Under the pieces are notes generated by a model. It had not been told where the DNA came from. It worked only from the letters and a program-made list of their open reading frames with translations, and made no database searches. A stretch of 64,000 nt of DNA from Myxococcales bacterium (GTDB taxonomy: Bacteria > Myxococcota_A > UBA9042): the NCBI GenBank assembly GCA_947499075.1, contig CANMNA010000002.1, positions 1,287 to 65,286 on the forward strand, in the 5' to 3' direction. The position numbers were made by a program, and so were the translations under genes. This document shows, one piece after another, positions 6,298 to 47,948 of this stretch (position 1 is its first letter; each line of letters opens with the position of its first letter).

Positions 6298-6300
6298 GGA

Positions 6301-6615
6301 TCACAGATCCTCGGCCGAGCGGATCAACTCGGCGAAGAAGTTGGTGCGGATGCGGATCAGGCTGGCGCGCTTGTTCTTGTTGATGCCTTCGACATTGGCG
6401 GTGTCCGGTCGCAAATACGAGGTCTCGATGACGTCGTCCTCAAAGCTGTACTCTTTGGACTTCTTCTTGGCCCCAGCGCCGGCGGCTGCGGGCTTGTCTT
6501 TGCCCTGAGCCAGCGCCTCGGTCGGCAGCGCGGTCGCCGCAAACGCCAACACGGTGACCGTCGCCGTCAAGAATAATCCTGACTTCTTACAAAGTTGGGA
6601 CAGCAAAGCAGGCAT
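6301..6615 (-). CDS. Small secreted protein (104 aa), paralogous to the 18205..18462 product
   Basis: The ATG at 6615 is preceded by GGAGG. The signal peptide is MPALLSQLCKKSGLFLTATVTVLAFAATALPTEALA. The mature region KSKEYSFEDDVIE...RASLIRIRTNFFAELI aligns with KSKFYDFSDQLIDGE...RAKFDKLLRLKKSF of the other small protein. Confidence 0.5.
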   Translation of the reverse strand: MPALLSQLCKKSGLFLTATVTVLAFAATALPTEALAQGKDKPAAAGAGAKKKSKEYSFEDDVIETSYLRPDTANVEGINKNKRASLIRIRTNFFAELIRSAEDL

Positions 6616-8234: not shown

Positions 8235-8276
8235 GGCGCGCGGCGATTGTGGAGCCCAAACCGGGTCGGCGCAAAT

Positions 8277-11324: not shown

Positions 11325-11405
11325 GGTGCGCTTGCTCAACTGCGGGCAAATGCGGTAAGTGAACTGTCAACGCAGGTCTGCACTTGCGGCGAACCGGGAG
11401 AGACG

Positions 11406-16757: not shown

Positions 16758-17852
16758 GTGTGGAACAATGCCCTGCGATTGCCAAGCGGCGCAGGCCGCG
16801 CTAACGTGCGGGTGCGCCGAATGCTTGCCGACGCGGCTATCACGCACCCCTACGTATCCGATTTTGGCAGCAGCTCTGGAATGCGAGGCAAAAGCCCGAT
16901 GGTGCAAGGCTCCGGCGCAACCCATCACAGCTGCGGACCACTTCGTGACAATTTGGGGCACCGGGGCGCTGCCACGGCGCTGCTGCGCGCCCCGCATCTG
17001 GTCGGCCTGACGCTGACGTGCCTCGCGCTACTCGCCGTGCGCGCGGTACCGGCAGGGGCGTTGCCGGCTGGCACCCGCATCGAGACAAGCGACGACGGCA
17101 AGATCGTGCAGATCCCCGGTGAACCGCTGCCACAGCCCGGCGCCAAATTGCCGGTGCCCAAGGTCAAGCGCACCGCAGCCGACAAGCCGATTGCGACCAA
17201 GGCCCCTGAGGCGGCCAAGCCCGTCGCAGGTCCGCGCGAAGTAGAGACGATCGCACAGCCTGCCGTCGAGTTTGGCGGCGGCTACATCGTGTTGCCGGAC
17301 AGCGTGCTGCGCCTCATCGCAACCGCGCGCAACCCGGGTAAAGGACAACGCGATCAGCACCCTACGCTGCAGGGCCTGGTCATCGAAGGCGGCTACCGGA
17401 TGCCCGTGTCGCCGCGCAGCTGGATCGTGGTGCGCGGGGGCCTGATTCTGCCGATGGTCCCCGACCAGAATTGGTGGGCGGCCAAAGGCAGCCCCGCGCC
17501 GCTGTACACTGCGATCAGCGTGGTCGGTATCGACATCACGGCCGATTACCTGCGCCGATTTGAAGTCAACGCGGTGCTCGGCGTGCTGCTCCGCGGGGGC
17601 CTCGGTCTGCAAGTGGTGGCCGGTGGCGCGACCCAAACGGAGACGCTGCCCAACTGCGCGGCGAGCAAGGCCGCAACCTGTGCGACGTGGCGCACCTTGG
17701 GCAAGACTGAGGTGTGGCTGCCGCCGGTGCTGCCTGCGCTGCGGGCCACCGCTGGCCTTGATCTGCGGCTGAGCAAGGAACTGGCGCTTCAGGTCGAAGG
17801 CGGACTGCGCAGCGCCCCGTACCTGGGCGGTGGCTTTGCCTACTCGTTCTGA
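16758..17852 (+). CDS. Putative outer-membrane beta-barrel protein (start uncertain)
   Basis: There is an internal signal-like segment LTLTCLALLAVRAVPAGA. Amphipathic beta-strand segments alternate, and the C-terminus is GGGFAYSF with a terminal aromatic residue. Confidence 0.4.
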   Translation: MWNNALRLPSGAGRANVRVRRMLADAAITHPYVSDFGSSSGMRGKSPMVQGSGATHHSCGPLRDNLGHRGAATALLRAPHLVGLTLTCLALLAVRAVPAGALPAGTRIETSDDGKIVQIPGEPLPQPGAKLPVPKVKRTAADKPIATKAPEAAKPVAGPREVETIAQPAVEFGGGYIVLPDSVLRLIATARNPGKGQRDQHPTLQGLVIEGGYRMPVSPRSWIVVRGGLILPMVPDQNWWAAKGSPAPLYTAISVVGIDITADYLRRFEVNAVLGVLLRGGLGLQVVAGGATQTETLPNCAASKAATCATWRTLGKTEVWLPPVLPALRATAGLDLRLSKELALQVEGGLRSAPYLGGGFAYSF

Positions 17853-18204: not shown

Positions 18205-18462
18205 CTACTTGAGCAATCGCTCTTTGGCAGTCTCTAACATCGCAGGGCGAAACGACTTCTTCAGGCGCAACAGCTTGTCGAATTTGGCGCGCTGCCGGGT
18301 CTCGAGCACTACGGTCATCGGCTTTTTGATTTCGCCATCGATCAACTGGTCGCTAAAATCGTAGAACTTCGACTTTTCTTCGCCAAAAGCCGCGCCCGCC
18401 GGGGCCAGAAAGGCCAGCGCAGTGGCGCCCAGAATTGCGGCTCGGACAGTCTTGCGGGTCAT
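18205..18462 (-). CDS. Small secreted protein (85 aa), GltF/NfsF-position gene, paralogous to 6301..6615
   Basis: The signal peptide is MTRKTVRAAILGATALAFLAPAGAAFG. It is the last gene of the TPR operon. Confidence 0.5.
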   Translation of the reverse strand: MTRKTVRAAILGATALAFLAPAGAAFGEEKSKFYDFSDQLIDGEIKKPMTVVLETRQRAKFDKLLRLKKSFRPAMLETAKERLLK

Positions 18463-18538
18463 GATCGGTTCCTCGGGTGGCGCGCTGCCGCCAACAGTCT
18501 AGGTCTTTGTCGCCAAAGTGCAACTGCCATGCAAGGTG

Positions 18539-20644
18539 CTACGGTTTGGGTGTGGGCGCCGCGCCGTCCTTGGGCTGCGGTTCTTTGGCCTGCTTCTCCA
18601 ACGTCTTGGCCGCATCGATTTCTTGGATGCGCGACACAATCGCGACCAGGTTCTTCCACTTGACGTCGAGCTCCCGGGTCGCCTTGATCAACTCGGTCTT
18701 CTTCTGGACCCAGTCGGGGCCACCCTTCTTGGGCGCCGGTGTGGCCTGACAAATCGCCAGCACTTTGTCCCACTCCAGCGGCCCTTTCTTGGCGTCAACG
18801 GGCGGTTTCTTCATACCGACGTGGGCCTTGATCGCCTCGCGCGCCGCGTCACGGGCAACCTTGAGCTTGTCGGCCTCGGCCTGCGCGGTGTCCGGATCGG
18901 TGTTCAGCGCATCTTTGAGGTACTGCTTCCAGTACTTCGACGCCTTGTCCGAGTCGTTGAAGTGCTTGTAGTAAATGATCGCCAACCGCACCAAGATCGC
19001 GTAGCGCTTGGGATCTTTGATCAGCACCCGCTCGTAGATTTCAGCCGCCTTCTTGGGATCGCGCATGCCTTCCAGGGCCAGGGCATAGCCGGTCAGGCCT
19101 TCCAGATTCTCATTTTCTAGTTCGATGGCCTGCTTGTAGATGCGCACTGCGTCACGGTAATTCAAGTACTCCAAGTAGATAGCGCCCAAGTTCAGCCGCG
19201 CCGACACGCTGGACTTGTTCAGCTGTACGGCGTTCTTGAACGCCACGACTGCGCGCGGCAAGTCGTGCAGGTTGACGTAAACCATGCCCAAGTTGGCCCA
19301 CCCTTCAGCGTTGGCCGGGTCGATCGACAGCACCTTCTCTTCCAAAATCCAGCGCGCGATGTCGTACTTGCCCTGCTTGAGGTTGATGAGACCTCGGATA
19401 TTGAGCGCAATCGTGTCCTCTCGGTTGACGCGCAGCGCCTTGCGCAAGAACTCTTCGGCCAGCTTGAGGTCGTTTTGATGTAGCCAGTACAGCGACAACG
19501 CCACGTTGTTCATGGCGTTGTCTGGGTCTTGGCCCAGGATCGAGTCGCAGATGCCCTTGGCTTGCTCGGCCAGCGCATTGGCCTTGGCACTCTCGCCGGC
19601 TTCGACAAAGCGCTGCGCTTGGGCCAGCAGGGACCGGGCGATGTAGGCCTGAGCCGACAGCTGCAAGCCGCGCTCACGATCGTCTTTGGGCTCGATGGCT
19701 TTGGCCGTCTCGTAGGCCTTGCGGGCGTTGTCGTACTTGCCCAAGCGCTCGTAGGCCATGCCCAAGTTGAAGTAGGCCTCGTAGAAGCGCTTGTCCTGAT
19801 CGATGGCCTTTTGGAATTCTTGGGCGGCCGAAGTGTAGTCGGGCTCGCACTTGCTGCAGCGACCGTCGGCGGCCTTGCAGACTTGCGGGCACTCGTACTT
19901 GCTGCACTTGCCGCTGGACGTGTCGATGTATTCGCCGATTTTGCACGGGCCGGCGCCATCGGAGCTGCCCGACTCGAGCTCCTTTTCGCTGCACTCGCGG
20001 GCCACCAGATCGCACCCCTCGCTGCCGGCCTTACACCGGATGTAGCGGTCGTTGGGTGCGCCAGCTACGGGCTTGCTGGCTTCGTCAGCGGCGGGCGGGG
20101 CCTCGACCTTCTTGATCCAGTCGGCACACCAGCGCGATCCGCCGGCGATGAGCTTTTTGTCGCAGGCCTTGGTGTCTTGCTCACAGGCCAAATCGCGCAC
20201 GCCGCCCACCCACGGCTCGCACGGCACTTCAATGTCTTTCTCGACCTCTTCTTCTTTGCCGTCTTCGGTCTTGATCTTCTCTTTCTTTTTCTCGGTGCGG
20301 ACATAGGTGGCGCAACGATCGAGCACGCAGCCGTCGGGGTTGTCGATCGCCATTTCCGCGCATTGGTTGGGCGCGATCCGGGCACATGACCTACCCAGGC
20401 TGACAAAGCCGCCGGGGCAGCATTGGCCGTCTTCGAGCATCCGGTAGGGGCTGCACTTGGGCACAGAGCGCAGCGCTGAGGCGATGCCGGAGCGCATGGC
20501 GTCTTGGGCCTTGGTGTCGATGCCGGGCACGTATTCCTGGGCGAGGGCGGGGCTGGCCCACAGCAGGGCGATCACGCTGAGGCAGCCGACCGTGCGGGCG
20601 ACAAGGGCGGTTGGGTTCGATACGCTGGTGTTCGGGTGGCTCAC
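18539..20644 (-). CDS. Secreted TPR protein with an N-terminal Cys-rich domain (GltE/NfsE-position)
   Basis: A signal peptide is followed by ~17 Cys in the first 250 aa, then multiple TPRs (AYFNLGMAY..., GWANLGMVY...). The GTG start overlaps the stop of the upstream gene (GTGA). Confidence 0.6.
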   Translation of the reverse strand: MSHPNTSVSNPTALVARTVGCLSVIALLWASPALAQEYVPGIDTKAQDAMRSGIASALRSVPKCSPYRMLEDGQCCPGGFVSLGRSCARIAPNQCAEMAIDNPDGCVLDRCATYVRTEKKKEKIKTEDGKEEEVEKDIEVPCEPWVGGVRDLACEQDTKACDKKLIAGGSRWCADWIKKVEAPPAADEASKPVAGAPNDRYIRCKAGSEGCDLVARECSEKELESGSSDGAGPCKIGEYIDTSSGKCSKYECPQVCKAADGRCSKCEPDYTSAAQEFQKAIDQDKRFYEAYFNLGMAYERLGKYDNARKAYETAKAIEPKDDRERGLQLSAQAYIARSLLAQAQRFVEAGESAKANALAEQAKGICDSILGQDPDNAMNNVALSLYWLHQNDLKLAEEFLRKALRVNREDTIALNIRGLINLKQGKYDIARWILEEKVLSIDPANAEGWANLGMVYVNLHDLPRAVVAFKNAVQLNKSSVSARLNLGAIYLEYLNYRDAVRIYKQAIELENENLEGLTGYALALEGMRDPKKAAEIYERVLIKDPKRYAILVRLAIIYYKHFNDSDKASKYWKQYLKDALNTDPDTAQAEADKLKVARDAAREAIKAHVGMKKPPVDAKKGPLEWDKVLAICQATPAPKKGGPDWVQKKTELIKATRELDVKWKNLVAIVSRIQEIDAAKTLEKQAKEPQPKDGAAPTPKP

Positions 20645-23600
20645 TTGGCACCTGCCTTCTTGGCGTCGCTAACAGTCTTGGGCTTGTAAGAAACGGTGAA
20701 CTTGCCGCGGCGCACGCTGGTCACAAACGCCGCCGACGTCGCAGGGTCGGTCGACTCATTGGCCGACACGGTGGCCGCCGCTTTGGGCAAGTTGGGGTCC
20801 TTTTCGACAGTTGGGTACGCGTCCGGGCTGACCTTGGCCGCGTAGTCGCCGGCTTCTTTGGACCACTTGTTGTACACGCCCAGATTGTGCGCAATCTTGA
20901 TGGCGCTGCCCAACGCGGCCAGCGACTGCTCTTCAATCGGCACTGCTTTCTGCTCGATCGCCAGCTTGTACTGGTCGGCCAGCTCGGGGAAGCGCTCGAC
21001 CTCTGGCGGCACCGGGGCCTTGAACAGGTCTTCCTTGAAGTTGAAGTACAACAAGCCGATCTTGAACATGGCCGCCGCAGCCCAGCCACGGCCACCGCCG
21101 GCCGCCGCTTGGTCAAATACTTTGAAATACTCGGCCTCTGCCCGCTTGAGTGCTTCGGCTTTCTTTTGCAGCGTCGGCAGCAGCATCTTCATGTTCTTGA
21201 CGGTCTTGAGCGTGAGCACGTCAAAGTCATCGAACAGGTACTCGGTCTTGTAAAACATCGCCTGAGCCGCAAACACCGAAGCGCGGCCGGCCTTGCCCTT
21301 GCCATCGGGCCGATCAAAGGCCTTTTGGGCATCATCGGCGGCGCGCACCGCGTCTTTGCGGTTCTTGCCGGCATCAGACAGGCGCAGGTTTTCGACCTTG
21401 CGGCCCAACGCTTCGACGTGCAAATCCGGGCGATCTGGGTACTTGCCGACCACTGCGGCATAGGCACCGGCGGCGAGCTTGGCGCCTTCGCTGCCCATTT
21501 TTTCGTAGACGTGGCCTTTCTCCATCTCAGCGTCGGCGACCAAGCCCTTCAAGCGCTTGGTCTTGTCGTCATCGCCCTTCAGGTTGTTGGCCACGGTGAT
21601 GAACTTGTCGTAAGCAGCGGTGGCATCTTTGTACTGCTGCAGCGCGACCAGGATGGTGCCGGCGTTGATAAGGGCTTGAGCCGCATCGGCATTGTCGCGG
21701 AACTTGGCCATGTCCAGGAACGCATCGGCGGCTTCACGGAAGCTCGTCATCGCCTCATAGAGCATACCGACGTTGAACTTGGCTTCCGGCGCCACTTTGG
21801 CCTTGGGGAATTCTTTGACGACGCGCTCATAGGTGTCGATCGCGGTCTTGTCCTGCTGCTGCAGCTCGTACAGCGTGGCCTTGTTGTACAGCGCCGTCGC
21901 CGCCAGCTCAGGCTCGTCGGACTTGAAGCGCGCCAGGATCTTGTCGTACTTGGCGTGCGCACCGTCGTAATCTTTCTTTTCAGCCAGTTCGCTCGCCTGC
22001 TCGGCGACGGCCACCGCCACATACTTCTTGAGGTCTTTGACCTCGAGCACGATGTGAACCTTGCGCTTGATCATCAGCTCCGCCCACTCCTCGATCTTGG
22101 GCCACTCTTTGAGCCGGGCGTAGATGTCGATGAGAGTCTTGGCGGCGATTTCAGCAACCTTGTGATCTTCTTGGTACTTGTGCACCCGCTCGAAGCCACT
22201 GATGGCCTCTTTGTACTGACCGCGGTCGTAAAATGATGCTGCCGCCAAATACATGATTTCAGGTACTTTTTTGCCTTTGTTGCACTGCTTCTTCTTGCCC
22301 GCTGCGCAGTCTGTCTTGGCTTTCTCCATGAGCTCGACGTACTTGTCGGCGGCCTGCACGTAGCTCTTTTCGAGCACGTGCAACTCTTGGCGCGGCTTGG
22401 GCAGGTTGGCGTTCTTGATCTGCTCGTCGGTGAGCTCGGCTTTTTTGTCCTTCTTGAACGTGTGGGTCTTGACGCCGTCGCCTTCGACCGACGCCACCAG
22501 CGGCGCACAGTCGGCACGCTCGACCCACTTCTGATCTTTGTCGATCCAGCAGGCCTTGGTGTGGCGCATCAGCTCTTCGGTGGCGTAAATCACGCCGAGC
22601 GCCGAGTCTTCGACAAACTCGCCTTCTGGATCGCGGCGAATGGTCTCTTCGTAGCAAATCCGGGCCTTGTCGAACTCTTTGAGCTGGTCGTAGTAGATTT
22701 CAGCCAAGTAGAAGTTGACCAGGTACGCCTTCTTGGCGGTCGGCCAGCGGCGCAGGAACTCTTTGTAGTCTTCAGCAGCGCGGGCGTAGAACTGGCGCGC
22801 CTTGGCCTGATCCTTGGTCTCTTCTTCGGTCTTTTGAGCCAACTGGTGATAGTAGTTGGAGACGAACAGCAGGTAGTTCTCGCCCATCCGGTCGGCCTTC
22901 TCCAGCGCTTCTTTGGCCTTGGCATCGCCTTTGCTCTTCAGGGCCTGAATCCACGGCGAGGTGCGGTTGTCCGAAAACGCCAAGAACTTGCGCATCGCCG
23001 CTTCGATGTCGGGGAAGGCACCGAGCTTCTTGTAGATGTCGGTGATCGACTCATGCCAGTCGACGCAGCGCGGATCGGTCGGGCGCTTGTCGATGAAGTG
23101 CTGGTGCAGGTCGACCGCGTCTTTGTCCTTGTCGATCGAGATGTAGATCTCGGCCAGCTTGAACAGGCGGTCCCACATCTTGGCCTCGCCTTCGACGCTG
23201 GTGAAGTACTCCTCGGCTTTGGGCCACGCACCGTCGAGTTCGGCGTAGGCTTGGACCAAGTCCTTGAGCGCCTGATCGCGGAACTCGATCTTGCCGCGCT
23301 CTTTGCCGACGCCGATTTCCTTGACCACCATCTGGAAGGTATCGATCGTACGCTGGAATTCGCGCAAGTTGTAGTAGACCCATCCCAGCTTGTACAGCGC
23401 GTAGTTGAACAGTTCGCTGGTCTTGTAATTCTGGGTGATCTTTTCGTAGTTCATCTTGGCCAGCGTCAAGTTGTTGGCTTCGAAGAAGTATTCGGCCAAC
23501 GCCAAGTGCGCCTTGGGGATCAGCGGGCTGGTCTGGTGGTTCTGGATCAGGCGGTTGAGGTACTGCACGCCTTTTTGCGACAGCACTTTGTCGCCCAGCG

Positions 23601-24207
23601 CCTTGCCCTGCATCATGGCGGCTTTGCCCAAGCGGTACAGCACTTCAGCCATGCGGCCGTAGTTGGGGTGCTGCTGCAGGATTTTTTCGTAAAACGTAAT
23701 CGATTTCTGGTAGTTCTCGACCGGCTGCACCGGCTTCTCTTTGAGCAAGCCCTTTTCGAACTGCTCCACCTTGCGATCGTAGTCGCTGCGCTCCATCAGG
23801 TAGGCGAACTTGGTCGACTCCCACCACGCTTCGGCCAGCCGAAAGTAGTACTCCGGCCGATTCGGATCTTGGGGCACGGCCCGCTCCAGCAGGTCTTCCA
23901 GCGTCTTGATTGTGCGATCGCGGATCTTTTGCTTCTCGATCTGCAGCTTGCGCTCAGCCTCGGTAAAGCCCATCTGTTCCAGCTTGTCGACCTGAAATTG
24001 CCCCGTCGCCAGCTTGTCTTCGTCACGCTTGGGCTTGACCGGGCCCACCGGCTTCTTGTCGTCCTCGACCAGCGTGCCCTTCTTGTCGACCTTCTTGGTC
24101 GCCGCACCGGCCTCAATGTCCTCTTCTTGGGCGTGGACGGTCGGCGCCAGCAGCGTGACGATCAGCGCAAAGGCCTGCAAACCTTGGAGACGGGCAAATT
24201 TTCGCAT
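20641..24207 (-). CDS. Large secreted TPR protein (~1189 aa; GltD/AgmU/NfsD-like)
   Basis: The ATG at 24207 is followed by the signal peptide MRKFARLQGLQAFALIVTLLAPTVHA. There are more than 15 TPR-like repeats. Size and position match GltD-type proteins. Confidence 0.6.
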   Translation of the reverse strand: MRKFARLQGLQAFALIVTLLAPTVHAQEEDIEAGAATKKVDKKGTLVEDDKKPVGPVKPKRDEDKLATGQFQVDKLEQMGFTEAERKLQIEKQKIRDRTIKTLEDLLERAVPQDPNRPEYYFRLAEAWWESTKFAYLMERSDYDRKVEQFEKGLLKEKPVQPVENYQKSITFYEKILQQHPNYGRMAEVLYRLGKAAMMQGKALGDKVLSQKGVQYLNRLIQNHQTSPLIPKAHLALAEYFFEANNLTLAKMNYEKITQNYKTSELFNYALYKLGWVYYNLREFQRTIDTFQMVVKEIGVGKERGKIEFRDQALKDLVQAYAELDGAWPKAEEYFTSVEGEAKMWDRLFKLAEIYISIDKDKDAVDLHQHFIDKRPTDPRCVDWHESITDIYKKLGAFPDIEAAMRKFLAFSDNRTSPWIQALKSKGDAKAKEALEKADRMGENYLLFVSNYYHQLAQKTEEETKDQAKARQFYARAAEDYKEFLRRWPTAKKAYLVNFYLAEIYYDQLKEFDKARICYEETIRRDPEGEFVEDSALGVIYATEELMRHTKACWIDKDQKWVERADCAPLVASVEGDGVKTHTFKKDKKAELTDEQIKNANLPKPRQELHVLEKSYVQAADKYVELMEKAKTDCAAGKKKQCNKGKKVPEIMYLAAASFYDRGQYKEAISGFERVHKYQEDHKVAEIAAKTLIDIYARLKEWPKIEEWAELMIKRKVHIVLEVKDLKKYVAVAVAEQASELAEKKDYDGAHAKYDKILARFKSDEPELAATALYNKATLYELQQQDKTAIDTYERVVKEFPKAKVAPEAKFNVGMLYEAMTSFREAADAFLDMAKFRDNADAAQALINAGTILVALQQYKDATAAYDKFITVANNLKGDDDKTKRLKGLVADAEMEKGHVYEKMGSEGAKLAAGAYAAVVGKYPDRPDLHVEALGRKVENLRLSDAGKNRKDAVRAADDAQKAFDRPDGKGKAGRASVFAAQAMFYKTEYLFDDFDVLTLKTVKNMKMLLPTLQKKAEALKRAEAEYFKVFDQAAAGGGRGWAAAAMFKIGLLYFNFKEDLFKAPVPPEVERFPELADQYKLAIEQKAVPIEEQSLAALGSAIKIAHNLGVYNKWSKEAGDYAAKVSPDAYPTVEKDPNLPKAAATVSANESTDPATSAAFVTSVRRGKFTVSYKPKTVSDAKKAGAK

Positions 24208-24297
24208 GGGACTTCCTGCTAGCAAATCAAGGCGGTGGTCGACCACCCGAACAAACGAAACCTGAGCCGGCGCACGCGGGGCGTGGCGGACGACCGA

Positions 24298-26271
24298 CTA
24301 CGGCCCAGCGGGCTTTTCGCCACCCAGACCATGGTCTTCGCCGGTTTTGCACTTCGACTTGAGGTACGAGCGGTAGGCGCCAATTTCGTCCTTCCAGAAC
24401 TCGCCTTCAAACGGCCACGACATCGAATCCGATCCGGCGATCGCCACCGCGCCTTCTTTGGCGACCGCGTCGCCCAACTCCTTGGCGCGACCTGCCTGCT
24501 CCTCTTCGATCTCCTGGGTGCGAATTTCGTCGAGATCCAGCCGCAGCTGCGCCAGCTTGTCGAAGTACAGGTCGAGCTCCTTTTGGGCCTGACGCAGCGT
24601 TTGCTGAATCACTACGCCCGCTTCGGACACGCGCTCGGTGCGACGCTGGCCGAGTTTTTGCAGCAATTCCTGACCAGTCGGACCCAGCGCAGCCAAGTTG
24701 GCGCGGATGATCTTGTCCTCCTTGTCGATTTGCTTGACGGTCTGGTGCAGGTTGTAGAATTCGACGTTGCTCAGCACCGGGGCTTGCAGCTGCTTGGGCA
24801 GACCCGCGCCGGCCTTGGGGCTGTTCACCGTGGCCAAAAAGTTGTTGTAAAACTCTTCGGGGCGCTTGCTGCGCTTGAGGAAGTCACGCAGCGGCGGTCC
24901 GAGCACAAAGATCTTCTCTTCGAACATCTTCATGGCCAATTCGGCCTTGTCGGCGTGGCATAGGTTGACGTAGGCCGTGGCTTCGAGCACCCACAGCTCC
25001 GGATAAAACTGGTGCGAGAAGTACGGGCTGTGCAGGGCGTGGAAGGTGCCAAGCGCGCGCGAGGTGTCGCCTTTCAAGAAGTAGGTCCATCCGGACTCGT
25101 AAAATGCAGTTGCGAGCTTGGGCGAGTTCTTGCTGATCTTCTTGTAGTAGTAGATCGCCGCATCGAACTGCTGGATGTCATAGGCCAAGCGCGCCAGAGC
25201 CAGGTAGGCCAGATCGACCACAGGCCTGCCGTCGAGTTGCTGTTCGGCGGCGAGTACGGCCTTTTGAAACGCTTCGGAGGCATCTTTGACCTGGCCGCCC
25301 ACCAGCTTCTCTTCGGGGTTCTCCGGAATCGACATCAGGCCGATGAGGTACTGGGCACGCGCGTAGTCCGACGCTTTGGCTGAGACTTTCTCCAGGTAGG
25401 GTCGCGCCGCGTCCTTGACGCCAAAGTCGTTGAGCGCTTCACCCACGAAGTAGAAGTAGCCGTCTTGAAACGGTTGCTCAAACGACGACACCGCGATCTT
25501 GGTCAGCTCTTCGAGCTCAGGCGGACGGTAGATGATCTGCTTGCGCAGCTCGCGCAGTTGGTCAAAGGCTTGGACAAAGAACAGCTTGTCAGAGCCCGCG
25601 CGCACCACGTCGAGCAGCGTGTCCGCAGCCGATTGGACCAGGCCGGCCCGAGCCAGCGCGTTGGCGATGCCATACTTGGCGCTGTAGGCCTCAGCCGAGT
25701 CGGGGGCAAAGGCCACGCCATCGACACCCTCTTCGACAAACTCGGTAAACGTCTGAACCGCTTTGACGAATTCGCCATTGTTGGCATAGGCTTGTCCAGC
25801 AGCCAACACTTTGCCGGCGAACATGCGGCGACCCGCTTCTTCGCGCTTCTTCTGCTCTTCCAAAATCCGCAGCGACTCTTCTTTGAGCCGGGCCTCTTCG
25901 GCGGCTTTTTCGGCCTCAGACAGCTCGCGCTCCGGCCTTTTGACTTCCTTGGGCTTGTCCGCTTCGCCACCGCCCGCTGGCGCCTTGGCCCCAGAAGCCG
26001 TTCCGATCAAGAACTGGATGAGCTTTTGCGACGCCCCCCGCCGCTTGAGCTCCATGATCTCCTTGGGCCCCAGCGTGAATTTGCTGGCGTCTTTTTGGAC
26101 CTTTTTGATGATCGTCTCGTCGGGCACTTCGGACTCGAGCAGGACGAACACTTGGTCTAGCGTGATCGCCAGCACAGGTGTGGCGTAGCCCAAGGCCAGC
26201 GCCAGCACTGACGCAAAGGCCCCGGTGGTCAGGCGCCGCGCCAAGGGCGTGTGCGGTGTGTAGGTATCCAT
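24298..26271 (-). CDS. Secreted TPR-like protein (~657 aa; GltC/NfsC-like)
   Basis: The ATG at 26271 is preceded by GGAGG. A signal peptide is followed by a coiled Lys/Glu region and TPR-like helices (YYYKKISKNSPKLATAFYESGWTYF). Confidence 0.55.
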   Translation of the reverse strand: MDTYTPHTPLARRLTTGAFASVLALALGYATPVLAITLDQVFVLLESEVPDETIIKKVQKDASKFTLGPKEIMELKRRGASQKLIQFLIGTASGAKAPAGGGEADKPKEVKRPERELSEAEKAAEEARLKEESLRILEEQKKREEAGRRMFAGKVLAAGQAYANNGEFVKAVQTFTEFVEEGVDGVAFAPDSAEAYSAKYGIANALARAGLVQSAADTLLDVVRAGSDKLFFVQAFDQLRELRKQIIYRPPELEELTKIAVSSFEQPFQDGYFYFVGEALNDFGVKDAARPYLEKVSAKASDYARAQYLIGLMSIPENPEEKLVGGQVKDASEAFQKAVLAAEQQLDGRPVVDLAYLALARLAYDIQQFDAAIYYYKKISKNSPKLATAFYESGWTYFLKGDTSRALGTFHALHSPYFSHQFYPELWVLEATAYVNLCHADKAELAMKMFEEKIFVLGPPLRDFLKRSKRPEEFYNNFLATVNSPKAGAGLPKQLQAPVLSNVEFYNLHQTVKQIDKEDKIIRANLAALGPTGQELLQKLGQRRTERVSEAGVVIQQTLRQAQKELDLYFDKLAQLRLDLDEIRTQEIEEEQAGRAKELGDAVAKEGAVAIAGSDSMSWPFEGEFWKDEIGAYRSYLKSKCKTGEDHGLGGEKPAGP

Positions 26272-26364
26272 CAATCCTCCATTCGGGGGCTGCGCGGTCC
26301 GGGCCAAAACCCCGGGCGCCATCAGCCCAAGACGCGTTGGCAGCGCCAACGGTCTACGTTGCGG

Positions 26365-27294
26365 CTATTGTGGGGGCGCGGTGAACCATGTCAGCGCGGC
26401 GGTCACGGCCAGCGGCCGCGCCAGACCACCACTGCTGTCGTTCTTGGCGTCGTCAAAGGCCGGGTAAAACAGGTGGTGGTAATCCAGGCGCAGGGCGAAG
26501 CGCTCCGACAGGTAAAACTGCAGGTAGCCGCCGACGTTACCGGCAGCGTCGATCCGCATGATGCCGGCCGGAAACTGCTGCGTGGTGACCTTGGTCGAGA
26601 CCGCGCCCACGCCAAAGCACAGCGCCATGTCGAACTCACCCAGCTTGGTGCCGAAAAAGCCAATCTTGCCGTGCAGCAAGTTCCAGTCGATGCCTGCCGA
26701 GGTGTAACCGACCAAAGTTTGCGGCAAGCGCACTTGCAGCTCATAGCCCTCTGGCCGATTGCTCTCCAGCTTGGTGCGCAGCGAGGTCGCCTTGTCGTAG
26801 GTGTAGACGGCGTGGACGTTTAAGGCCAAGTCCTCTGAAAAGTAGTAGTTGTAGCCCAAGCCGCCGGAGATGTAGGTCCAGAAGTCGTCGTTGGGGACCA
26901 CGCCGGCGAGCACCGACAGGCCGTGGCGACCTTCCTTGACCACCTCGCGCTTCTGCACGACCCGAATGTCGCGGCGCTTGGCCCAATCCATCCGCGAGCC
27001 CGGCGGGACCAAGTCGTCGCCAATGCCGTACACGTCGACCTCGCCACCGCTGGCGCCGCCCAAATCCGGCATCGCTTCCTTGGTCTTTTTGGCCTTGGGC
27101 TCCGGTTTCGGCTGGGGCTTGGGCTCTGGCTTGGGTTCTTCGGCGGGTGGCGCCTCTGCCGGCACATCTGCCTGGGGCTCGGCTGGCTTGGCATCGCCGC
27201 CAGCTTCCTGGGCCAGCACAGGCAGGGCCAATCCCAGAGCGCCCGCCACCAGCGATAGCGCCATCGTAGTCCAAATCTTCGTACTATTTCGCAT
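26365..27294 (-). CDS. Outer-membrane beta-barrel protein (GltB/NfsB-like), paralogue of 27331..28065
   Basis: A signal peptide is followed by a Pro/Glu/Lys-rich linker and a beta-barrel region. The LHGKIGFFGTKLGEFDMALCFGVGA block is shared with the neighbouring gene. Confidence 0.55.
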   Translation of the reverse strand: MRNSTKIWTTMALSLVAGALGLALPVLAQEAGGDAKPAEPQADVPAEAPPAEEPKPEPKPQPKPEPKAKKTKEAMPDLGGASGGEVDVYGIGDDLVPPGSRMDWAKRRDIRVVQKREVVKEGRHGLSVLAGVVPNDDFWTYISGGLGYNYYFSEDLALNVHAVYTYDKATSLRTKLESNRPEGYELQVRLPQTLVGYTSAGIDWNLLHGKIGFFGTKLGEFDMALCFGVGAVSTKVTTQQFPAGIMRIDAAGNVGGYLQFYLSERFALRLDYHHLFYPAFDDAKNDSSGGLARPLAVTAALTWFTAPPQ

Positions 27295-27330
27295 ATCTAC
27301 CTCGCACGGCAGCCTGGGCCGCGGCGCGCG

Positions 27331-28065
27331 TTATTTGCTCAGGAAGGCCAAGCCGGCGGTGAACTGGACGGGCGCCAAGAACGTGATGCTCTCTTGGGGC
27401 TTGTAGATGTACTGCTTGTAGTCGATGCGGATGTTGAGAAACCGCGTCAAGTAGAAGCGAAAGCCGAGGCCCCAGCTGCCGCCGGCTTTGAGTCCGTTGA
27501 CCGGCGTCTTGTTGCCCAGCGACTCATCGATGTCGGCATTGATAAACGCCGCGCCGACCGAGCAATTCATGTCAAACGAACTGATTTTTTTGTCGAAAAT
27601 GCCGATTTTGCCGTGCAGCGGGCTGTAGGCGACGCCCAGCGTGCTGACCCAATGCAGCTTGGGGGCGTGCTGGGCGCCAATCGTCAGCGAGGCCGGCTCT
27701 TTGCCGGGACCGGCTGGCACGTGGCCCAAGAAGTTCAAGATCTTGGATTCTGACGACAACAGGTACGAGAAGTCGCCTTCCAGGGCCACCGTGTCGGTCA
27801 AGAAGAACCCGACCCGGCCGCCGATCGACTTGAACAGGTAGAAATTGTCGTTGGGAATGGCGCCACCGTGGATGGTGCCCTCGACGCCGTGCTTGCGCTC
27901 AAACAGCGGGTTGGTCAGCGACGGCACCGCCAATTCGGTGTTCCAGTACTTCTGCAGCTCGCGGTCGATCGGCTCATTGTCGGCGGCTGTGGCCGACAAT
28001 GGCACGGCCAACGTGGCAACAGTTGCCAGCGCGGACCACCAAGCGGCGATTGTCTTGAGTTGCAT
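27331..28065 (-). CDS. Outer-membrane beta-barrel protein (GltA/NfsA-like)
   Basis: The ATG at 28065 is preceded by GGAGAA. The signal peptide is MQLKTIAAWWSALATVATLAVPLSATA. The LHGKIGIFDKKISSFDMNCSVGAA block is paralogous to the adjacent gene. The C-terminus is AFLSK. Confidence 0.55.
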   Translation of the reverse strand: MQLKTIAAWWSALATVATLAVPLSATAADNEPIDRELQKYWNTELAVPSLTNPLFERKHGVEGTIHGGAIPNDNFYLFKSIGGRVGFFLTDTVALEGDFSYLLSSESKILNFLGHVPAGPGKEPASLTIGAQHAPKLHWVSTLGVAYSPLHGKIGIFDKKISSFDMNCSVGAAFINADIDESLGNKTPVNGLKAGGSWGLGFRFYLTRFLNIRIDYKQYIYKPQESITFLAPVQFTAGLAFLSK

Positions 28066-28112
28066 GATCTTCTCCAAACGGGTCGCTGCGTTGTCGCAGG
28101 AGGATGCCGGCA

Positions 28113-30098
28113 TCACTTGCACAGACCTTCGCACTTGGCCTCGCAGGTGCCCTTGCAGCACACGCTCTTGCCGTTGGGGCCGCACGGCAGGCCGTCGGGC
28201 GCAGGCGCGTTGCGGCACAGCCCGCCGGGCGTGCAGGAGTTGAGGCCGCACTCTTTGGCGCCCGCATCGCAGTCGGTGTCGACGGCGCAGGCGCGGCGGA
28301 ACGTCAGGCGGGTGTCGCGCTCGTTGTCGAGCTCTTCAAACCGGTAGTCGATCTCGGCGGTGCCGACAAAAATGTTCTCCAGGCTCTGAAACAGGTTGTT
28401 TTGATATTTCATGCGGCCGCGCATCGCCCGCATTTGGCCAATCGGCTCGCTCTTGACGTTGTTGTCGACAAAGCCGACGCGCCAAGTGCCGGCCAAGGCA
28501 TAGCGCACCTTGAGGATGGCGCGGCTCATGCTGTCGCTCCACTTCTCCGCGTCGCTGCGGTTAAACGAGGCGGTGCTGATCAGCTGGTAGGTGCCTTCGG
28601 ACCGGCACGCCAACTCTTGCAGGGTCTCGTCGGGCTCAGTGTGGCCTTTGGACTGAATCTGGATGACGTGGATATGAATGGGAAAGCCGTCTTGGGCCAT
28701 TTTGTGCAGCAGTTCTTTGTAGCGCACGGTCGTGAACGAGCACTCTTTGCGGCACTGGCCGCCGGCCTTGAACGGCTGGACGAATGTGAAATTGTCGTTG
28801 GGTGTGCAGGTGTCCGGACCGTCGGTTAGCAGCACAATGTGCTTGGCGTTGCCCTTGGTTTCAGGGTGGACAGGCCCGGCGGGGAACGCCTTGAGGAAGT
28901 CGTAGCCTGCTTGGATGGCCTCATACACCGGCGATCGGCCGTTGCCTTCGTACTTGGCCAAGGCTTCGATGCCGTACTTGTTGAAGGCTTTTTTCTGGGC
29001 ATTGGCGCCGTAGCAAAAGCTCAACTGGTCGTTGGGCGCACGATTGGGTACGGTTGCCTTGGTTTGGTCTGGGCGCGGCCCGCAGCGAAAATTTGAGCCG
29101 GCCTTGCTGCTGGTGATGCAGTCGGTGTCGCTGGTGCAGGCCAAGCCTTCGACGATGGTATAGCTGCCCGCACCATCGTCGGCTTGGCAGACCACATCAT
29201 CGGTGCACGCGGCGTAGACCTGCTCTTTTTCGGAGTAGCCCAGCGCGACAACGCGGTCCTGGGCGTTGAGCGAGTCGATGAGCTGGCGCGCGCCATCGAC
29301 GAGCACGTAGCGCGGATCTGAGGCGCACTCAATGAAGTCGCCGGGCGGCTTCAAGGTGCCCGGGGTGTCTTCAGCGAAGTTGCTGGCGTTCTTGCACAGC
29401 GGCTGATCGGTGGCCATAAAGCCCGACACTGAGCCGGTGTGGTCGACGATCACAGCGACGTTTTGGAAGGTATCGGACTTGTCCTTGTCGCAGCGCAGGG
29501 CATCGCGCCGGAAATTCACTGCTTTGGCCTTCTGGGAGGACTTGGTGCCGCCGCCCGCGCATCCGCCGCTGCCTTGGGTACCGGCGTGCTGCTCGTAACA
29601 ATCGAGCTCAAGGGTAAAGTGACCGGGGGCGACGGTGCTGAACTCTTTGCTGGTCGACAGCGACTGGAATTCGATGCGCTCGCCCTCCTTGATGCCGAAG
29701 TCCTTCTCGTTTGCGCACTTGGGCTTGTTCTTGCGGTTGTTGGGGTCAGACGACACCAAGTTGACGGTCAACTCCATGCCATTGGGATCGGCCTCAGTCT
29801 GGCCGGGCAACAGGTCGCCCGCCTCGTCGCGCAGCGGCGCACCGCACACGCGCTTGATCGCGCCGGTCTGGGTGTTGATGATCGCCGGAAACGCCGACAC
29901 CACCTGCACAGTCTGAAACGCGATCTGGTCCAAACTAAACCGGGCGGAGTAATCACAGGAGGCTAAGCCGCCGGTGATCGTCCAGACCGTGGCCGCGGTG
30001 CCAGCCAGCATCGCCCAAGGCAAAACTACGCGACGGGCGCCAGTGGCGGCGGCCGACTGGGTGCGGGCGGCCGAAGATTTGGGATGCAATTGTGCCAT
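28113..30098 (-). CDS. Cysteine-rich lipoprotein with a von Willebrand factor A domain (CglB-like adhesin?)
   Basis: The lipobox is LASC after a hydrophobic segment. A VWA core (VAVIVDHTGS ... HIVLLTDGPD) is present and more than 40 Cys are spread through the protein. It is the first gene of the Glt/Nfs-like operon. The start is ambiguous (ATG 30098, ATG 30011 or TTG 30125). Confidence 0.55.
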   Translation of the reverse strand: MAQLHPKSSAARTQSAAATGARRVVLPWAMLAGTAATVWTITGGLASCDYSARFSLDQIAFQTVQVVSAFPAIINTQTGAIKRVCGAPLRDEAGDLLPGQTEADPNGMELTVNLVSSDPNNRKNKPKCANEKDFGIKEGERIEFQSLSTSKEFSTVAPGHFTLELDCYEQHAGTQGSGGCAGGGTKSSQKAKAVNFRRDALRCDKDKSDTFQNVAVIVDHTGSVSGFMATDQPLCKNASNFAEDTPGTLKPPGDFIECASDPRYVLVDGARQLIDSLNAQDRVVALGYSEKEQVYAACTDDVVCQADDGAGSYTIVEGLACTSDTDCITSSKAGSNFRCGPRPDQTKATVPNRAPNDQLSFCYGANAQKKAFNKYGIEALAKYEGNGRSPVYEAIQAGYDFLKAFPAGPVHPETKGNAKHIVLLTDGPDTCTPNDNFTFVQPFKAGGQCRKECSFTTVRYKELLHKMAQDGFPIHIHVIQIQSKGHTEPDETLQELACRSEGTYQLISTASFNRSDAEKWSDSMSRAILKVRYALAGTWRVGFVDNNVKSEPIGQMRAMRGRMKYQNNLFQSLENIFVGTAEIDYRFEELDNERDTRLTFRRACAVDTDCDAGAKECGLNSCTPGGLCRNAPAPDGLPCGPNGKSVCCKGTCEAKCEGLCK

Positions 30099-30296
30099 GT
30101 CGCAACTCAGTTGGCGGCGGGTCAACCCGGCAGGTTCTTCAACCGTGTCGTGCAGTTCCAGCCAGTTCGGGCCCGGTGGGGCGTCACACCGCTACAGCGC
30201 AACCGGCAGTACCGGCGCACAAAAACGGGCCCGTAATGTTTCCCGCAAGGGGGCGGCAAGTCAAGCACAGGTCGACAGCTCCAGTGGGACCACCCA

Positions 30297-30446
30297 AATT
30301 CCCCACAGAAATCAACCGATGCCCCCGATTTGAGATGCAGATCAAGGAACAAGGAGCTGAAAGAGCGAGGCGTACTCTGGTACGCCGCAGCGAGAGAAGC
30401 GACGCAGTGACGCAGAGATGTGCTCAAAGCGGGGGATCGCGGGCCA
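30297..30446 (+). repeat. 150-bp dispersed repeat, copy 1 (upstream of uvrA)
   Basis: It is ~93% identical to 33452..33601 and contains a GGCGTAC-tctg-GTACGCC hairpin. It produces homologous spurious ORFs on the minus strand. Confidence 0.9.
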
Positions 30447-30517
30447 GGCCAGCACTGGACATGCGTTCAGGTCTGACATAGGCTGCGGCGCCGCGCCGGT
30501 GCGCAAATGCCTGTGCC

Positions 30518-33430
30518 ATGCCTGCTTCACCCCCAGCCGACCCACAAATTGTGCCTGCCGACACCTCAAGTGCCACGGGCATTGCGCCCCAGCCCAAGGA
30601 CTGGCTGACCGTGACGGGCGCTGCGCAGCACAACCTGCAGCACGTCAGCCTGCGTTTGCCCAAGAACAAGCTGCTGGTGTTTTCGGGGCCATCGGGCTCG
30701 GGCAAGTCGTCGCTGGCGTTTGACACGCTGTACGCAGAGGGCCAGCGCCGCTACGTCGAGTCGTTGTCGGCTTATGCCCGGCAGTTTCTGGGCCAGCTGG
30801 ACAAGCCGATCTACGACAAGATCTCGGGCCTGTCGCCGACCATTGCCATCGAGCAGAAGTCGGCCGGCAGCAACCCGCGGTCAACCGTGGGCACGGTGAC
30901 TGAGATCGCGGACTACCTGCGGGTGCTGTACGCACGGATCGGCGTGCAGCACTGCCCAACCTGCGATGCCACGGTGGGCAGCCAAGAGCCCACGCAAATC
31001 GTCCGCGAAATCCTAACATTGCCGCCAGGTGCGCGGATCTTGGTGCTGGCGCCCCTGTGCCGGCAGCGCAAGGGCACGTTTAAGGAAGAGTTTGCCCAAG
31101 CGCTGGCTGATGGCTTCGTGCGGGTCCGCCTGGGCGGTCAAGTACAAGAAATCACAGCGGGCATGGCCCTTGACAAGCACGGCAAGCACGACATCGATCT
31201 GGTGATCGATCGCGCGACCGTGCAACCCGAGGAGGCGCGGCGGCTGCAGGACAGTGTGGAGCAGGCCCTCAAGCGCGGTGGCGGCAAGTGCATCGTCGCA
31301 GTGGCGAGCACCGAGCCAGCGCCGCCGTGGACCGAAAAATCCTTCAGCGAAGAGCGGTTCTGCGACACTTGCAACCGCAGTTTTGGCGAATTGAGCCCGC
31401 TGGCGTTCTCGTTCAACAGCCCGGTCGGGGCCTGTGAAGCGTGCAAGGGCTTGGGCTTTGCCATGCAGGTCGATCCGGCGCTGGTCGTGCCCGATCCAGC
31501 GCTGACGCTGCGGCAGGGTGCCGTGGTGCCGTGGAAGGGCGTAGCCGATCTGGGCGGCATGACGTTTAAGATCTTGGAGAGCATGGCCAAGTCCCAAGGC
31601 ATTGCCCTGGATACGCCGTGGCGCGAGCTACCCGAGGCCGATCGTGAAAAAGTGTTGTACGGCAGCGACGGCCGCTTTCAGATCAGCTGGTCGGGTCAGC
31701 ACGGCCAAGGGACGTGGGGCGCACGCTTTGAGGGCGTGGTACCGCAGCTGCAGCGGCGGTGGAAGGACACCAAGAGCCAGGACCAGCGCGATTTTTACCA
31801 GGGCTTTTTCGTGCAGGCAGACTGCGCGGAGTGCAAGGGCGTGCGCTTGCGGGCCGATAGCCGCGCGGTGCGGGTGGCCGGGGTGTCGCTGCCGGAGCTG
31901 GGCGGTTGGTCGATCGCCCGGGCCCGGGCTTTTCTGGCAGACATGCCACTTGTCGGCGCAGCAGCCCAAATTGCCTTAGAGGTGCAAAAAGAGCTGCTGT
32001 CGCGGTTGGGCTTTCTGGAGCAAGTGGGCCTGGAGTACCTGACTTTGGATCGCGGCTCGGCCACGCTGTCGGGCGGCGAGGCCCAGCGCATTCGGCTGGC
32101 CAGCCAAGTCGGCTCTGAGTTGACCGGCGTGTTGTACATTCTGGACGAACCTTCGATTGGGCTACACCCGCGGGATAGCCGCCGGCTGGTCCAGACCCTT
32201 TTGCGCCTGCGCGATCTCGGCAACACCGTGCTGGTGGTCGAGCACGACGAAGACACCCTGCGCAGCGCCGATTACCTGGTCGATTTTGGGCCGGGCGCGG
32301 GTCGCCTTGGCGGCCACGTGGTGGCCCAAGGCACGCCGCAGGCGGTGATGGCCGATGTGGCATCGCGGACCGGTGGCTACCTCAGCGGGCGGCTGCAGAT
32401 CGCGCGACCGGCCCAGCGGCGGTCGCCCAAGGGATGGCTGGAGATCGCGCGCGCGACGAGCCACAACCTGCGCGACTTGTCGCTGCGGATGCCGATCGGG
32501 TGCATGGTGGCGGTCACTGGTGTGTCGGGCGCCGGCAAGTCCACGCTGGTTCACGACGTGCTGCTGCCCAACCTGCACGGTGTGCTCAACCGCTCGCGCG
32601 ATGGGTGGCTGCGCTGCCAATCGATCACCGGACTTGCGGCGTTCGACAAAGTCATCGAGGTCGATCAGCAACCGATCGGCCGCACGCCACGCAGCAACCC
32701 GGCGACCTACACCAAGGCTTGGGATCTGGTCCGGCAGGTGTTTGCCGAGCTACCCGAAGCCAGGGTCGCGGGTTATGGCCCGGGGCGCTTCAGCTTTAAC
32801 GTCAAGGGTGGTCGCTGCGAGCACTGCCAAGGCGATGGCGTGCTGCAGATCGAGATGCACTTTCTGGCCGATGTCTACGTGCCATGCGAGGTGTGCCAGA
32901 GCCGCCGCTTCAACGCCGCGACGCTGGCGGTGACCTACAAGGGCAAGTCGATCGCCGATGTATTGGAGATGACGATCGACGAGGCCGCCGAACTGTTCAA
33001 GGCCCACCCTGCAATTCTCAAGGTACTGTCGACGCTGCAGCAAGTCGGCCTGGGCTACATGGCACTGGGTCAATCGGCCACGACGCTGTCGGGCGGCGAA
33101 GCCCAGCGGGTCAAGCTCGCGCGCGAGCTGGCGCGGCCCGGAACCGGCAAGACCCTGTATATGTTTGACGAGCCTACGACTGGGCTGCACTACGACGACG
33201 TGGCCAAGCTGCTCGGCGTGCTCCAACGGCTGACTGACCGGGGCAACACCGTGCTGGTCATTGAGCACAACCTCGATGTGGTGCGCGCGGCCGACTGGGT
33301 CATCGATCTGGGCCCAGAAGGCGGCGGCGGCGGCGGCAAGCTCGTCGCCGAGGGCACACCGGAGCAAGTCGCAGGCGTGGCTGCCAGCCACACTGGGCAG
33401 GCCTTGGCCCAACACGCTGGCGGGCGGTGA
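30518..33430 (+). CDS. uvrA: Excinuclease ABC subunit A
   Basis: Two ABC ATPase modules (GPSGSGKSS; GVSGAGKST) and LSGGE signatures are present, with zinc-finger Cys pairs. Length is 970 aa. Confidence 0.9.
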   Translation: MPASPPADPQIVPADTSSATGIAPQPKDWLTVTGAAQHNLQHVSLRLPKNKLLVFSGPSGSGKSSLAFDTLYAEGQRRYVESLSAYARQFLGQLDKPIYDKISGLSPTIAIEQKSAGSNPRSTVGTVTEIADYLRVLYARIGVQHCPTCDATVGSQEPTQIVREILTLPPGARILVLAPLCRQRKGTFKEEFAQALADGFVRVRLGGQVQEITAGMALDKHGKHDIDLVIDRATVQPEEARRLQDSVEQALKRGGGKCIVAVASTEPAPPWTEKSFSEERFCDTCNRSFGELSPLAFSFNSPVGACEACKGLGFAMQVDPALVVPDPALTLRQGAVVPWKGVADLGGMTFKILESMAKSQGIALDTPWRELPEADREKVLYGSDGRFQISWSGQHGQGTWGARFEGVVPQLQRRWKDTKSQDQRDFYQGFFVQADCAECKGVRLRADSRAVRVAGVSLPELGGWSIARARAFLADMPLVGAAAQIALEVQKELLSRLGFLEQVGLEYLTLDRGSATLSGGEAQRIRLASQVGSELTGVLYILDEPSIGLHPRDSRRLVQTLLRLRDLGNTVLVVEHDEDTLRSADYLVDFGPGAGRLGGHVVAQGTPQAVMADVASRTGGYLSGRLQIARPAQRRSPKGWLEIARATSHNLRDLSLRMPIGCMVAVTGVSGAGKSTLVHDVLLPNLHGVLNRSRDGWLRCQSITGLAAFDKVIEVDQQPIGRTPRSNPATYTKAWDLVRQVFAELPEARVAGYGPGRFSFNVKGGRCEHCQGDGVLQIEMHFLADVYVPCEVCQSRRFNAATLAVTYKGKSIADVLEMTIDEAAELFKAHPAILKVLSTLQQVGLGYMALGQSATTLSGGEAQRVKLARELARPGTGKTLYMFDEPTTGLHYDDVAKLLGVLQRLTDRGNTVLVIEHNLDVVRAADWVIDLGPEGGGGGGKLVAEGTPEQVAGVAASHTGQALAQHAGGR

Positions 33431-34639: not shown

Positions 34640-34690
34640 TACTTGTCCCAATCTCGCCTGCTTTTGGCAGTGTTATTCTGAGGAACCACC

Positions 34691-47924: not shown

Positions 47925-47948
47925 TTTGGTCTGGTTTGGACTGCAGGC

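Follow-up and report, generated by a model that had tools for sequence, protein, structure and literature searches.

An operon-encoded VWA lipoprotein heads a candidate compact Glt-type gliding machine of an uncultured, myxobacterium-like freshwater bacterium

Which of the related trans-envelope machines of myxobacteria is encoded by a single operon that combines outer-membrane (OM) barrels, periplasmic repeat proteins and a surface lipoprotein: the Glt gliding machine, the Nfs spore-coat machine, or a relative with another task? The question is raised by seven co-directional minus-strand genes at positions 18205-30098 of a 64-kb stretch of DNA (hereafter the window; contig CANMNA010000002.1 of assembly GCA_947499075.1) from an uncultured freshwater myxobacterium-like organism. 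In the order of transcription we call these genes V, A, B, C, D, E and F. Judged by sequence comparison, the products of A to D and F are homologous to GltA, GltB, GltC, GltD and GltF and that of E probably to GltE, and a distal gene pair of the same window (F2 and G) encodes GltF-like and GltG-like proteins. The leading gene, V, encodes a lipoprotein with a von Willebrand factor A (VWA) fold and is syntenically fixed to the cluster. We consider it probable that a compact gliding transducer of the Glt type draws its OM and periplasmic modules from this locus, together with an operon-encoded adhesin comparable to CglB and CglD of Myxococcus xanthus.

The extent of the operon and the sizes of its genes, as given in a first-pass annotation of this DNA, were borne out. 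The same seven products were recovered by independent gene calls on two public contigs with identical DNA (ENA ERZ27280213; Logan ERR5863208), the only discrepancy being B, which is 299 aa long on the Logan contig. The operon is bounded by the divergent uvrA gene (30518-33430, plus strand) and by a convergent 317-aa open reading frame (ORF; 16899-17852, plus strand). All seven frames have a G+C content at third codon positions (GC3) of 0.73-0.84, and an N-terminal signal sequence could be recognized by eye in each product. The tight coupling of starts and stops proposed in the same annotation holds for the D/E junction, where the stop of D and the start of E overlap in the tetranucleotide GTGA (20641-20644), but not for the other junctions, which have gaps of 36-93 nt (from V to F: 47, 36, 93, 90, -4 and 76 nt). 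The 419-bp intergenic region between the divergent V and uvrA genes (30099-30517) presumably contains the promoter of the operon; our promoter and terminator scan performed at chance level, and no sigma-70-like site above chance was detected in this region upstream of V.

Family assignments were made by scanning the window products with NCBIfam models built from Myxococcus gliding proteins. These models, together with a validated Anaeromyxobacter cluster, stood in for the M. xanthus GltA-K, NfsA-H, CglB and CglD sequences. The curated cutoffs are 60 bits for TIGR04565 (OMP_myx_plus), 450 for NF033756 (GltC), 225 for NF033758 (GltE), 90 for NF033764 (CglF) and 40 for NF033768. Two reference clusters served for calibration. 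One, from Anaeromyxobacter terrae (locus L076), has the order B-A-C-D-E-F-G-H, and its GltC, GltE, GltF, GltG and GltH all exceed the curated equivalog cutoffs. The other originates from the cultured Bradymonadales glider Persicimonas caeni (locus L083; CP042468.1, 5.35 Mb region), and its scores are close to those of the window: 211 bits for GltC (177 in the window), 88 for GltE (71.5), 34 for CglF (38.5) and 84 for the barrels (73-77). Each window product best matches its positional counterpart in both clusters, with 29-42% identity to P. caeni for C, D, E and F and only 23-28% identity to the Anaeromyxobacter Glt proteins. The gene order A-B-C-D-E-F of the first-pass annotation is thus confirmed by best matches, and its assignment to the Glt/Nfs family, originally based on architecture, is upheld by model matches and colinear alignments with Glt clusters.

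The OM part of the cluster consists of A (27331-28065), a GltA/NfsA-like beta-barrel of 244 aa, and B (26365-27294), a GltB/NfsB-like beta-barrel of 309 aa that carries a Pro/Lys/Glu-rich N-terminal extension. Both score above the cutoff of TIGR04565 (76.6 and 73.2 bits, respectively) and they are paralogous to each other (23% identity, E 2e-14), in line with the two adjacent paralogous barrels expected from the earlier annotation. Their best reciprocal partners are, in A. terrae, the GltA-position barrel for A (5e-16, compared with 3e-3 for the other barrel) and the GltB-position barrel for B (8e-15) and, in P. caeni, barrel bb264 for A and barrel bb267 for B (1e-30). The order A-B-C equals that of nfs, whereas both reference glt clusters are arranged B-A-C.

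The three following genes encode secreted tetratricopeptide repeat (TPR) proteins. C (24298-26271; 657 aa, GltC/NfsC-like) matches the GltC model with 177 bits (E 5e-52) over profile positions 59-620 of 622, below the equivalog cutoff, and aligns over its full length with its P. caeni counterpart (33% identity, 2e-110) and, more distantly, with A. terrae GltC (24% identity, 7e-31). D (20641-24207; 1188 aa, GltD/NfsD-like) can be aligned colinearly with the GltD protein of A. terrae along 1128 aa (26% identity, E 1e-69) and is 29% identical to the P. caeni protein (E 2e-135). The best NCBIfam matches of D are nevertheless YbgF (108 bits) and BamD, an outcome that had been named in advance as one that would speak against the Glt assignment. 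The GltD proteins of A. terrae and P. caeni match YbgF and BamD in the same way, and none of the GltD-like proteins scanned (window, A. terrae, P. caeni) was recognized by a GltD model. The YbgF and BamD matches therefore do not refute the Glt call, and we rejected the identification of D as a protein of either of these families. E (18539-20644; 701 aa, GltE-like) reaches 71.5 bits on the GltE model, which is below the cutoff; it matches P. caeni E with an E value of 2e-29 and A. terrae GltE with only 1e-4, and its position is conserved in relatives. It contains an additional N-terminal region of approximately 230 aa (residues ~40-270) that holds 21 of its 23 Cys residues. This extension is confined to the closest relatives of the locus (clade I, see below); in clade II, Bradymonadales and Anaeromyxobacter the E protein is about 450 aa long.

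F (18205-18462) encodes a secreted GltF/CglF-like protein of 85 aa, which scores 38.5 bits on the CglF (=GltF) model (E 9e-10), below the cutoff, and shares 42% identity (1e-18) with the 85-aa F protein of P. caeni. A second GltF/CglF-like secreted protein of 104 aa is encoded by F2 (6301-6615, minus strand), with 51 bits on the same model (E 1e-13), again below the cutoff, and a match of 9e-10 to A. terrae GltF; F and F2 are paralogous (25% identity, E 9e-6). Located 3 nt from F2 on the same strand is G (4429-6297), which encodes a 622-aa bitopic protein. G matches the GltG model NF033760 with 141.5 bits over profile positions 128-648 of 650, below the equivalog cutoff, and its tail matches NF033768 (AgmX/PglI) with 94 bits, above the cutoff. 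A hydropathy profile places one transmembrane segment at ~309-328, followed by a periplasmic Glu/Lys-rich linker and a TonB-C-like tail. The earlier annotation had placed here, 12 kb from the operon, a small secreted paralogue next to a TonB-C/FHA-like bitopic protein. The pair is present, and G does have the TonB-C-type tail and the single membrane segment, but an FHA domain was not detected: TonB_C is the only Pfam match, and no FHA domain was found at E<=5, although A. terrae GltG does show FHA matches. The selA gene (6747-8276, 413 bits) lies directly upstream of F2-G on the same strand.

The first gene of the operon, V (28113-30098), encodes a lipoprotein of 661 aa with 29 Cys residues. 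Its lipobox, L-A-S-C (Cys48), is kept in relatives and is followed by a conserved C-D-S-T-A-R-F segment. An N-terminal beta-sandwich is followed by a divergent VWA domain, and the C-terminal tail is rich in Cys. Motifs resembling a MIDAS (metal ion-dependent adhesion site) occur at D219-H-T-G-S223 and T-D426-G-P-D429; the pattern shared by the family is D-x-(S/T)-G-S ... T-D-G-P-D, in which D219, G222, S223 and D426 are invariant. The VWA or VWA_3 model was the top Pfam match in three of the four relatives that were scanned (four of five family members when V itself is included). An AlphaFold2 model based on 20 homologues (pLDDT 79, pTM 0.84) predicts, from the N-terminus, a disordered tether, the beta-sandwich, an alpha/beta domain and the Cys-rich tail. 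When this model was compared with the PDB using Foldseek, 12 matches were obtained at E<=1e-3, including 4fx5, Sec23/24, ITIH1 and CaV alpha2-delta; most of these 12 carry a VWA-type fold, 4fx5 being a bacterial VWA protein. Integrin I domains, TEM8 and the vWFA domain of the LapA adhesin followed at E values of 5e-3 to 2e-2. Fold search, motifs and weak Pfam matches thus agree with the initial description of this gene as encoding a VWA lipoprotein, and V is a genuine lipoprotein with a predicted divergent VWA fold and a MIDAS-like motif.

Residues 1-57 of V have pLDDT values below 50 even though the C-D-S-T-A-R-F segment after the lipidated Cys is conserved. A conserved but disordered N-terminus would fit a tether that becomes ordered on a partner, as has been predicted for CglB, with its N-terminal strand placed between GltA and GltB (PMC11761067). 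The V family is small: an exhaustive profile search of 1.84 billion proteins gave 226 representatives with E<=1e-3. Ten V-family clusters were looked up, and no member had an informative name. A profile search with an alignment of the V-like proteins of Bradymonadales returned close relatives only and no CglB-named match; with its word prefilter, this search was uninformative. V is probably the surface adhesin of the machine.

To place the locus among its relatives, we scanned one genome per species on the basis of GltD and considered the best 80 of 365 loci, M. xanthus not being among them; the content of the relatives' clusters was read with tblastn and with profiles of V and of the barrels. 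The closest loci derive mostly from metagenome-assembled genomes (MAGs) of lake water (Baikal, Erken, Mendota and others), the remainder being from groundwater, sludge and sediment. They fall into two clades. Clade I (53-84% identity in D) has the arrangement V-A-B-C-D-E-F, and clade II (34-40% identity in D) has V, a single barrel and then C-D-E-F. A V homologue occurs directly upstream of the barrel gene(s), on the same strand, in all 51 loci of the two clades for which upstream DNA is available, and the order V-barrel(s)-C-D-E-F is kept in 51 species-level loci, down to 34% identity in D and 23% in V. In the literature searched, no VWA lipoprotein gene has been tied to a glt operon, and the linkage appears to be new.

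Of the clade II relatives (L031-L060, L065, L069, L071), most have a single OMP_myx_plus barrel between V and C, and a search of +/-10 kb revealed no other. The GltA and GltB proteins of M. xanthus are mutually dependent. Five MAGs with D proteins 53-64% identical to that of the window (L007, L014, L016, L021 and L068) bear the record titles "Enterobacteriaceae" or "Klebsiella pneumoniae" but contain a Myxococcota-type cluster, and these titles look wrong.

In a neighbour-joining tree of D (midpoint root), clades I and II together are sister to clusters of the Bradymonadales type; Anaeromyxobacter Glt is placed further out, as is a clade of paralogues that lack barrels and are linked to MglA/MglB. 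Members of the latter (L077, genes at 5354-6444; also L079 and L081, all Myxococcales MAGs) carry a GltC/D/E/G-like cluster preceded by MglB-like and small-GTPase genes, and probably correspond to the G4/G5-type clusters of M. xanthus. The L077-type cluster was tried as the nearest relative of the window locus and rejected, since it forms a separate clade, lacks barrels and gives only 51 bits for GltC. In the Bradymonadales-type loci the position of V is occupied by a lipoprotein of ~550 aa with the N-terminus C-D-T-V-A-L-I-S-F, named "VWA domain-containing protein" by the NCBI annotation pipeline (PGAP). It is a remote homologue of V (hhalign 96.9%, E 1.3e-10, 426 columns), so that the adhesin-like leader gene predates the clade to which the window belongs. 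Persicimonas, Bradymonas and Lujinxingia are described as gliding (PMC7188933, Table 1).

The Bradymonadales clusters (P. caeni and Lujinxingia MAGs) share with the window the VWA lipoprotein, two barrels, a C protein of 657 aa, D, E and an F protein of 85 aa. They differ in the B-A order of the barrels, in a short E protein (452 aa) and in a GltJ-like Zn-ribbon/GYF protein encoded directly after F; their leader is about 100 aa shorter than V and has no Cys-rich tail, and its counterpart of D-H-S-G-S reads E-N-S-G-S. The Agl-Glt system of M. xanthus (gltK-B-A-C and gltD-E-F-G-H-I-J, with CglB and CglD) contains homologues of the same GltA-G proteins, of nearly identical size: GltA, B, C, D, F and G have 256, 275, 673, 1191, 89 and 640 aa (PMC3169522, Table 1), and their counterparts in the window 244, 309, 657, 1188, 85 and 622 aa. 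In both systems paired paralogous OmpA-like barrels adjoin a GltC-like TPR protein, and a VWA lipoprotein rich in Cys accompanies the machine. The M. xanthus genes, however, form two clusters with the barrels in the order B-A, whereas the window has one operon with the order A-B. The window also differs in a G protein with no detectable FHA domain, a duplicated GltF, a GltE with a Cys-rich N-terminal region, and a VWA lipoprotein that is encoded in the operon and whose domain order is unlike that of CglB (416 aa) or CglD (1130 aa). With the integrin alpha-I/VWA adhesins in general (CglB, CglD, LapA vWFA, TEM8), V shares the predicted VWA Rossmann fold and MIDAS-type residues (DxSxS...D), and, like CglB and CglD, it is a lipoprotein that probably contains many disulfides; it departs from them in its large Cys-rich insertions, N-terminal beta-sandwich and Cys-rich tail, and in its sub-threshold similarity to VWA models.

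Extrapolation from the M. xanthus model (PMC9946355, PMC11761067, PMC4488436) suggests how such a machine might work. A and B would form an OM barrel pair serving as a platform, beneath which C would dock as a connector. D would act as a periplasmic pillar, binding both the TonB-like tail of G and its extended periplasmic segment, with E capping D, and F and F2 would bridge C and the tail of G. G would be powered by a TolQR-like proton motor (AglRQS) whose genes lie elsewhere. V, stabilized by disulfides, would be retained at the A/B platform, or by way of it, and displayed on the cell surface, where its MIDAS-containing VWA domain may bind the substratum and so turn motor movement into gliding. 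In Myxococcus it is CglB, helped by CglD, that couples the machine to the substratum (10.1101/2023.10.19.562135); V would take the role of CglB (and CglD), but from within the operon.

How well does gliding fare against other explanations of the same gene set? That the neighbourhood is a chance assembly of generic TPR, OmpA-like and VWA genes, e.g. a BamD/YbgF-like set or a Bat-like aerotolerance set, is hardly credible. The top matches of D described above and those of E (MamA, PrsT and PilW), together with weak matches to the BatC TPR model, speak for such an assembly; yet bona fide GltD matches YbgF and BamD as D does, C, F, F2, G and the barrels match Glt-specific or myxobacterial models, the alignments with Glt proteins are colinear and full-length, and the gene order is kept across ~60 species. 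A Bat-like aerotolerance operon (VWA plus TPR) was rejected specifically, the BatC scores being 19-26 bits against a cutoff of 175. For an Nfs-type system, in which AglRQS would serve sporulation by carrying spore-coat polymer around the cell rather than moving the cell itself, the following can be said: nfsA-F form a single operon in the order A-B-C-D-E-F, unlike the B-A-C of glt clusters (PMC3169522, sections 6 and 13), and GltI, GltJ and GltK are missing nearby, as they are in NfsA-H. We nevertheless regard this reading as unlikely on phylogenetic grounds. Nfs is described as the closest, short-distance paralogue of Glt in the fruiting Myxococcales (PMC3169522, section 13), and the window belongs to a lineage far outside that group, its D being only ~26% identical to Anaeromyxobacter GltD and grouping next to Bradymonadales, which glide and for which the strain description does not report sporulation (PMC7188933). 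Moreover, nfsG and nfsH follow nfsF, whereas G is not contiguous in the window and H was not found there, and no Nfs counterpart is known for the integrin-like surface lipoprotein encoded first in the operon.

A more serious competitor, though one to which we give well under even odds, is a Glt-like conveyor used for a non-locomotory task, such as adhesion to prey or particles or the movement of a surface protein or polymer. Glt-like cores occur in non-gliders, and M. xanthus itself has several non-motility paralogues (G4, G5) (Luciano et al., PMC3169522, sections 12-13); one barrel only is found in clade II, the machine is reduced, with no FHA domain detected on G and none of H, I, J and K found in the window, and the hosts are largely planktonic lake MAGs. 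Against this reading, the group A genes gltA, gltB and gltF, tied by Luciano et al. to gliding lineages, are all present, and the MglA/MglB-linked paralogue clade, with its low-scoring C, is clearly separate. Among cultured organisms, the nearest with this layout are the Bradymonadales, which glide (PMC7188933), and this favours motility.

Several observations count against a gliding machine with V as its adhesin. Every equivalog-type match lies below its curated cutoff, indicating family members rather than close orthologues, and E is inseparable from generic TPR proteins by sequence alone, generic TPR models scoring like GltE. No GltH (CglE), GltI, GltJ or GltK was found among the larger high-GC3 ORFs scanned in the window, small ORFs having been scanned in part, and no AglRQS, TolQR-like motor, MotA_ExbB or ExbD protein was found in the 64 kb either. 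V has no NCBIfam match, and its sole Pfam match, VWA_3, is weak and sub-threshold. Position 221 is Thr in the window copy and Ser in most relatives, and the Bradymonadales homologues have ExSxS, with Glu replacing the MIDAS Asp. The MIDAS of V lies ~170 residues after the lipidated Cys, compared with ~36 in CglB; the residue at position +2 after this Cys is Asp, and sorting of V to the OM and the cell surface is assumed. Surface gliding is not an obvious lifestyle for lake-water organisms, to which most of the relatives' MAGs belong, and the gliding reading for this lineage draws on homology and on analogy with M. xanthus. Finally, not every member of the V family adjoins glt genes, as is evident from a short paralogue in L085 (1574-2755; P0279). 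This protein of 393 aa has DxSxS and TDGPD motifs but neither lipobox nor Cys-rich tail, and its gene adjoins that of a TTGTED-repeat surface protein, away from any glt cluster.

The remainder of the window comprises housekeeping genes, a type II secretion block and a His-Xaa-Ser (Hxs) radical-SAM pair. The secretion block (54330-63421) encodes a "delta"-type GspC (241 bits), a secretin, GspE, GspF and three pseudopilins, and is consistent with a Myxococcota-like host. The maturase pair (47925-53611) consists of HxsB (52058-53611; 498 bits, cutoff 370) and a sub-cutoff HxsC-like radical-SAM protein (47925-50003); the ~2 kb of unassigned DNA between the two genes could hold precursor peptides. 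The region 34682-35653 resembles the Rcas_1661 family of thioredoxin-like (seleno)lipoproteins (75 bits, sub-cutoff). Two large ORFs are of unclear family: one of 1414 aa (39846-44090) with a weak PMT_2 match, and one of 771 aa (11325-13640) with weak TraA, delta-60-repeat and SBBP matches. The segment 18001-30000, which largely coincides with the operon, has a G+C content of 0.57-0.62, compared with 0.63-0.68 in its flanks, and a strongly negative AT skew. The low G+C content of the cluster probably reflects its Lys/Glu-rich TPR proteins rather than recent transfer, because the synteny is clade-wide.

Returning to the Glt-type gliding machine, the new features of the locus are the operon-fixed VWA lipoprotein, the A-B order of the barrels, the duplication of F together with the detachment of G, and an E protein enlarged by a Cys-rich region. 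A bolder proposal, which we put forward tentatively and regard as possible rather than probable, is that the V family represents the original operon-encoded Glt adhesin, retained as cluster leader in Bradymonadales and in two large clades of uncultured Myxococcota, with CglB and CglD as later, relocated replacements or derivatives. According to this proposal, A-F, F2-G and a TolQR motor would constitute with V a minimal apparatus of ~12 genes, operating without GltH/I/J/K or the FHA-GltI scaffold and, in clade II, with a single barrel.

The known mechanism of gliding is unchanged by this locus. The Glt machine of M. xanthus is spread over several loci, and its adhesins CglB and CglD, which were found genetically, are encoded at a distance from them. 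In the present locus a candidate adhesin is joined with the periplasmic pillar and the OM platform in one operon conserved across more than 50 species. This provides a small system in which comparison could show what focal-adhesion gliding truly needs. The candidate adhesin could be tested in the culturable genera Persicimonas, Bradymonas and Lujinxingia, and the combination of V, the barrels and GltC/D may serve as a marker by which to predict which uncultured freshwater Myxococcota move on surfaces.

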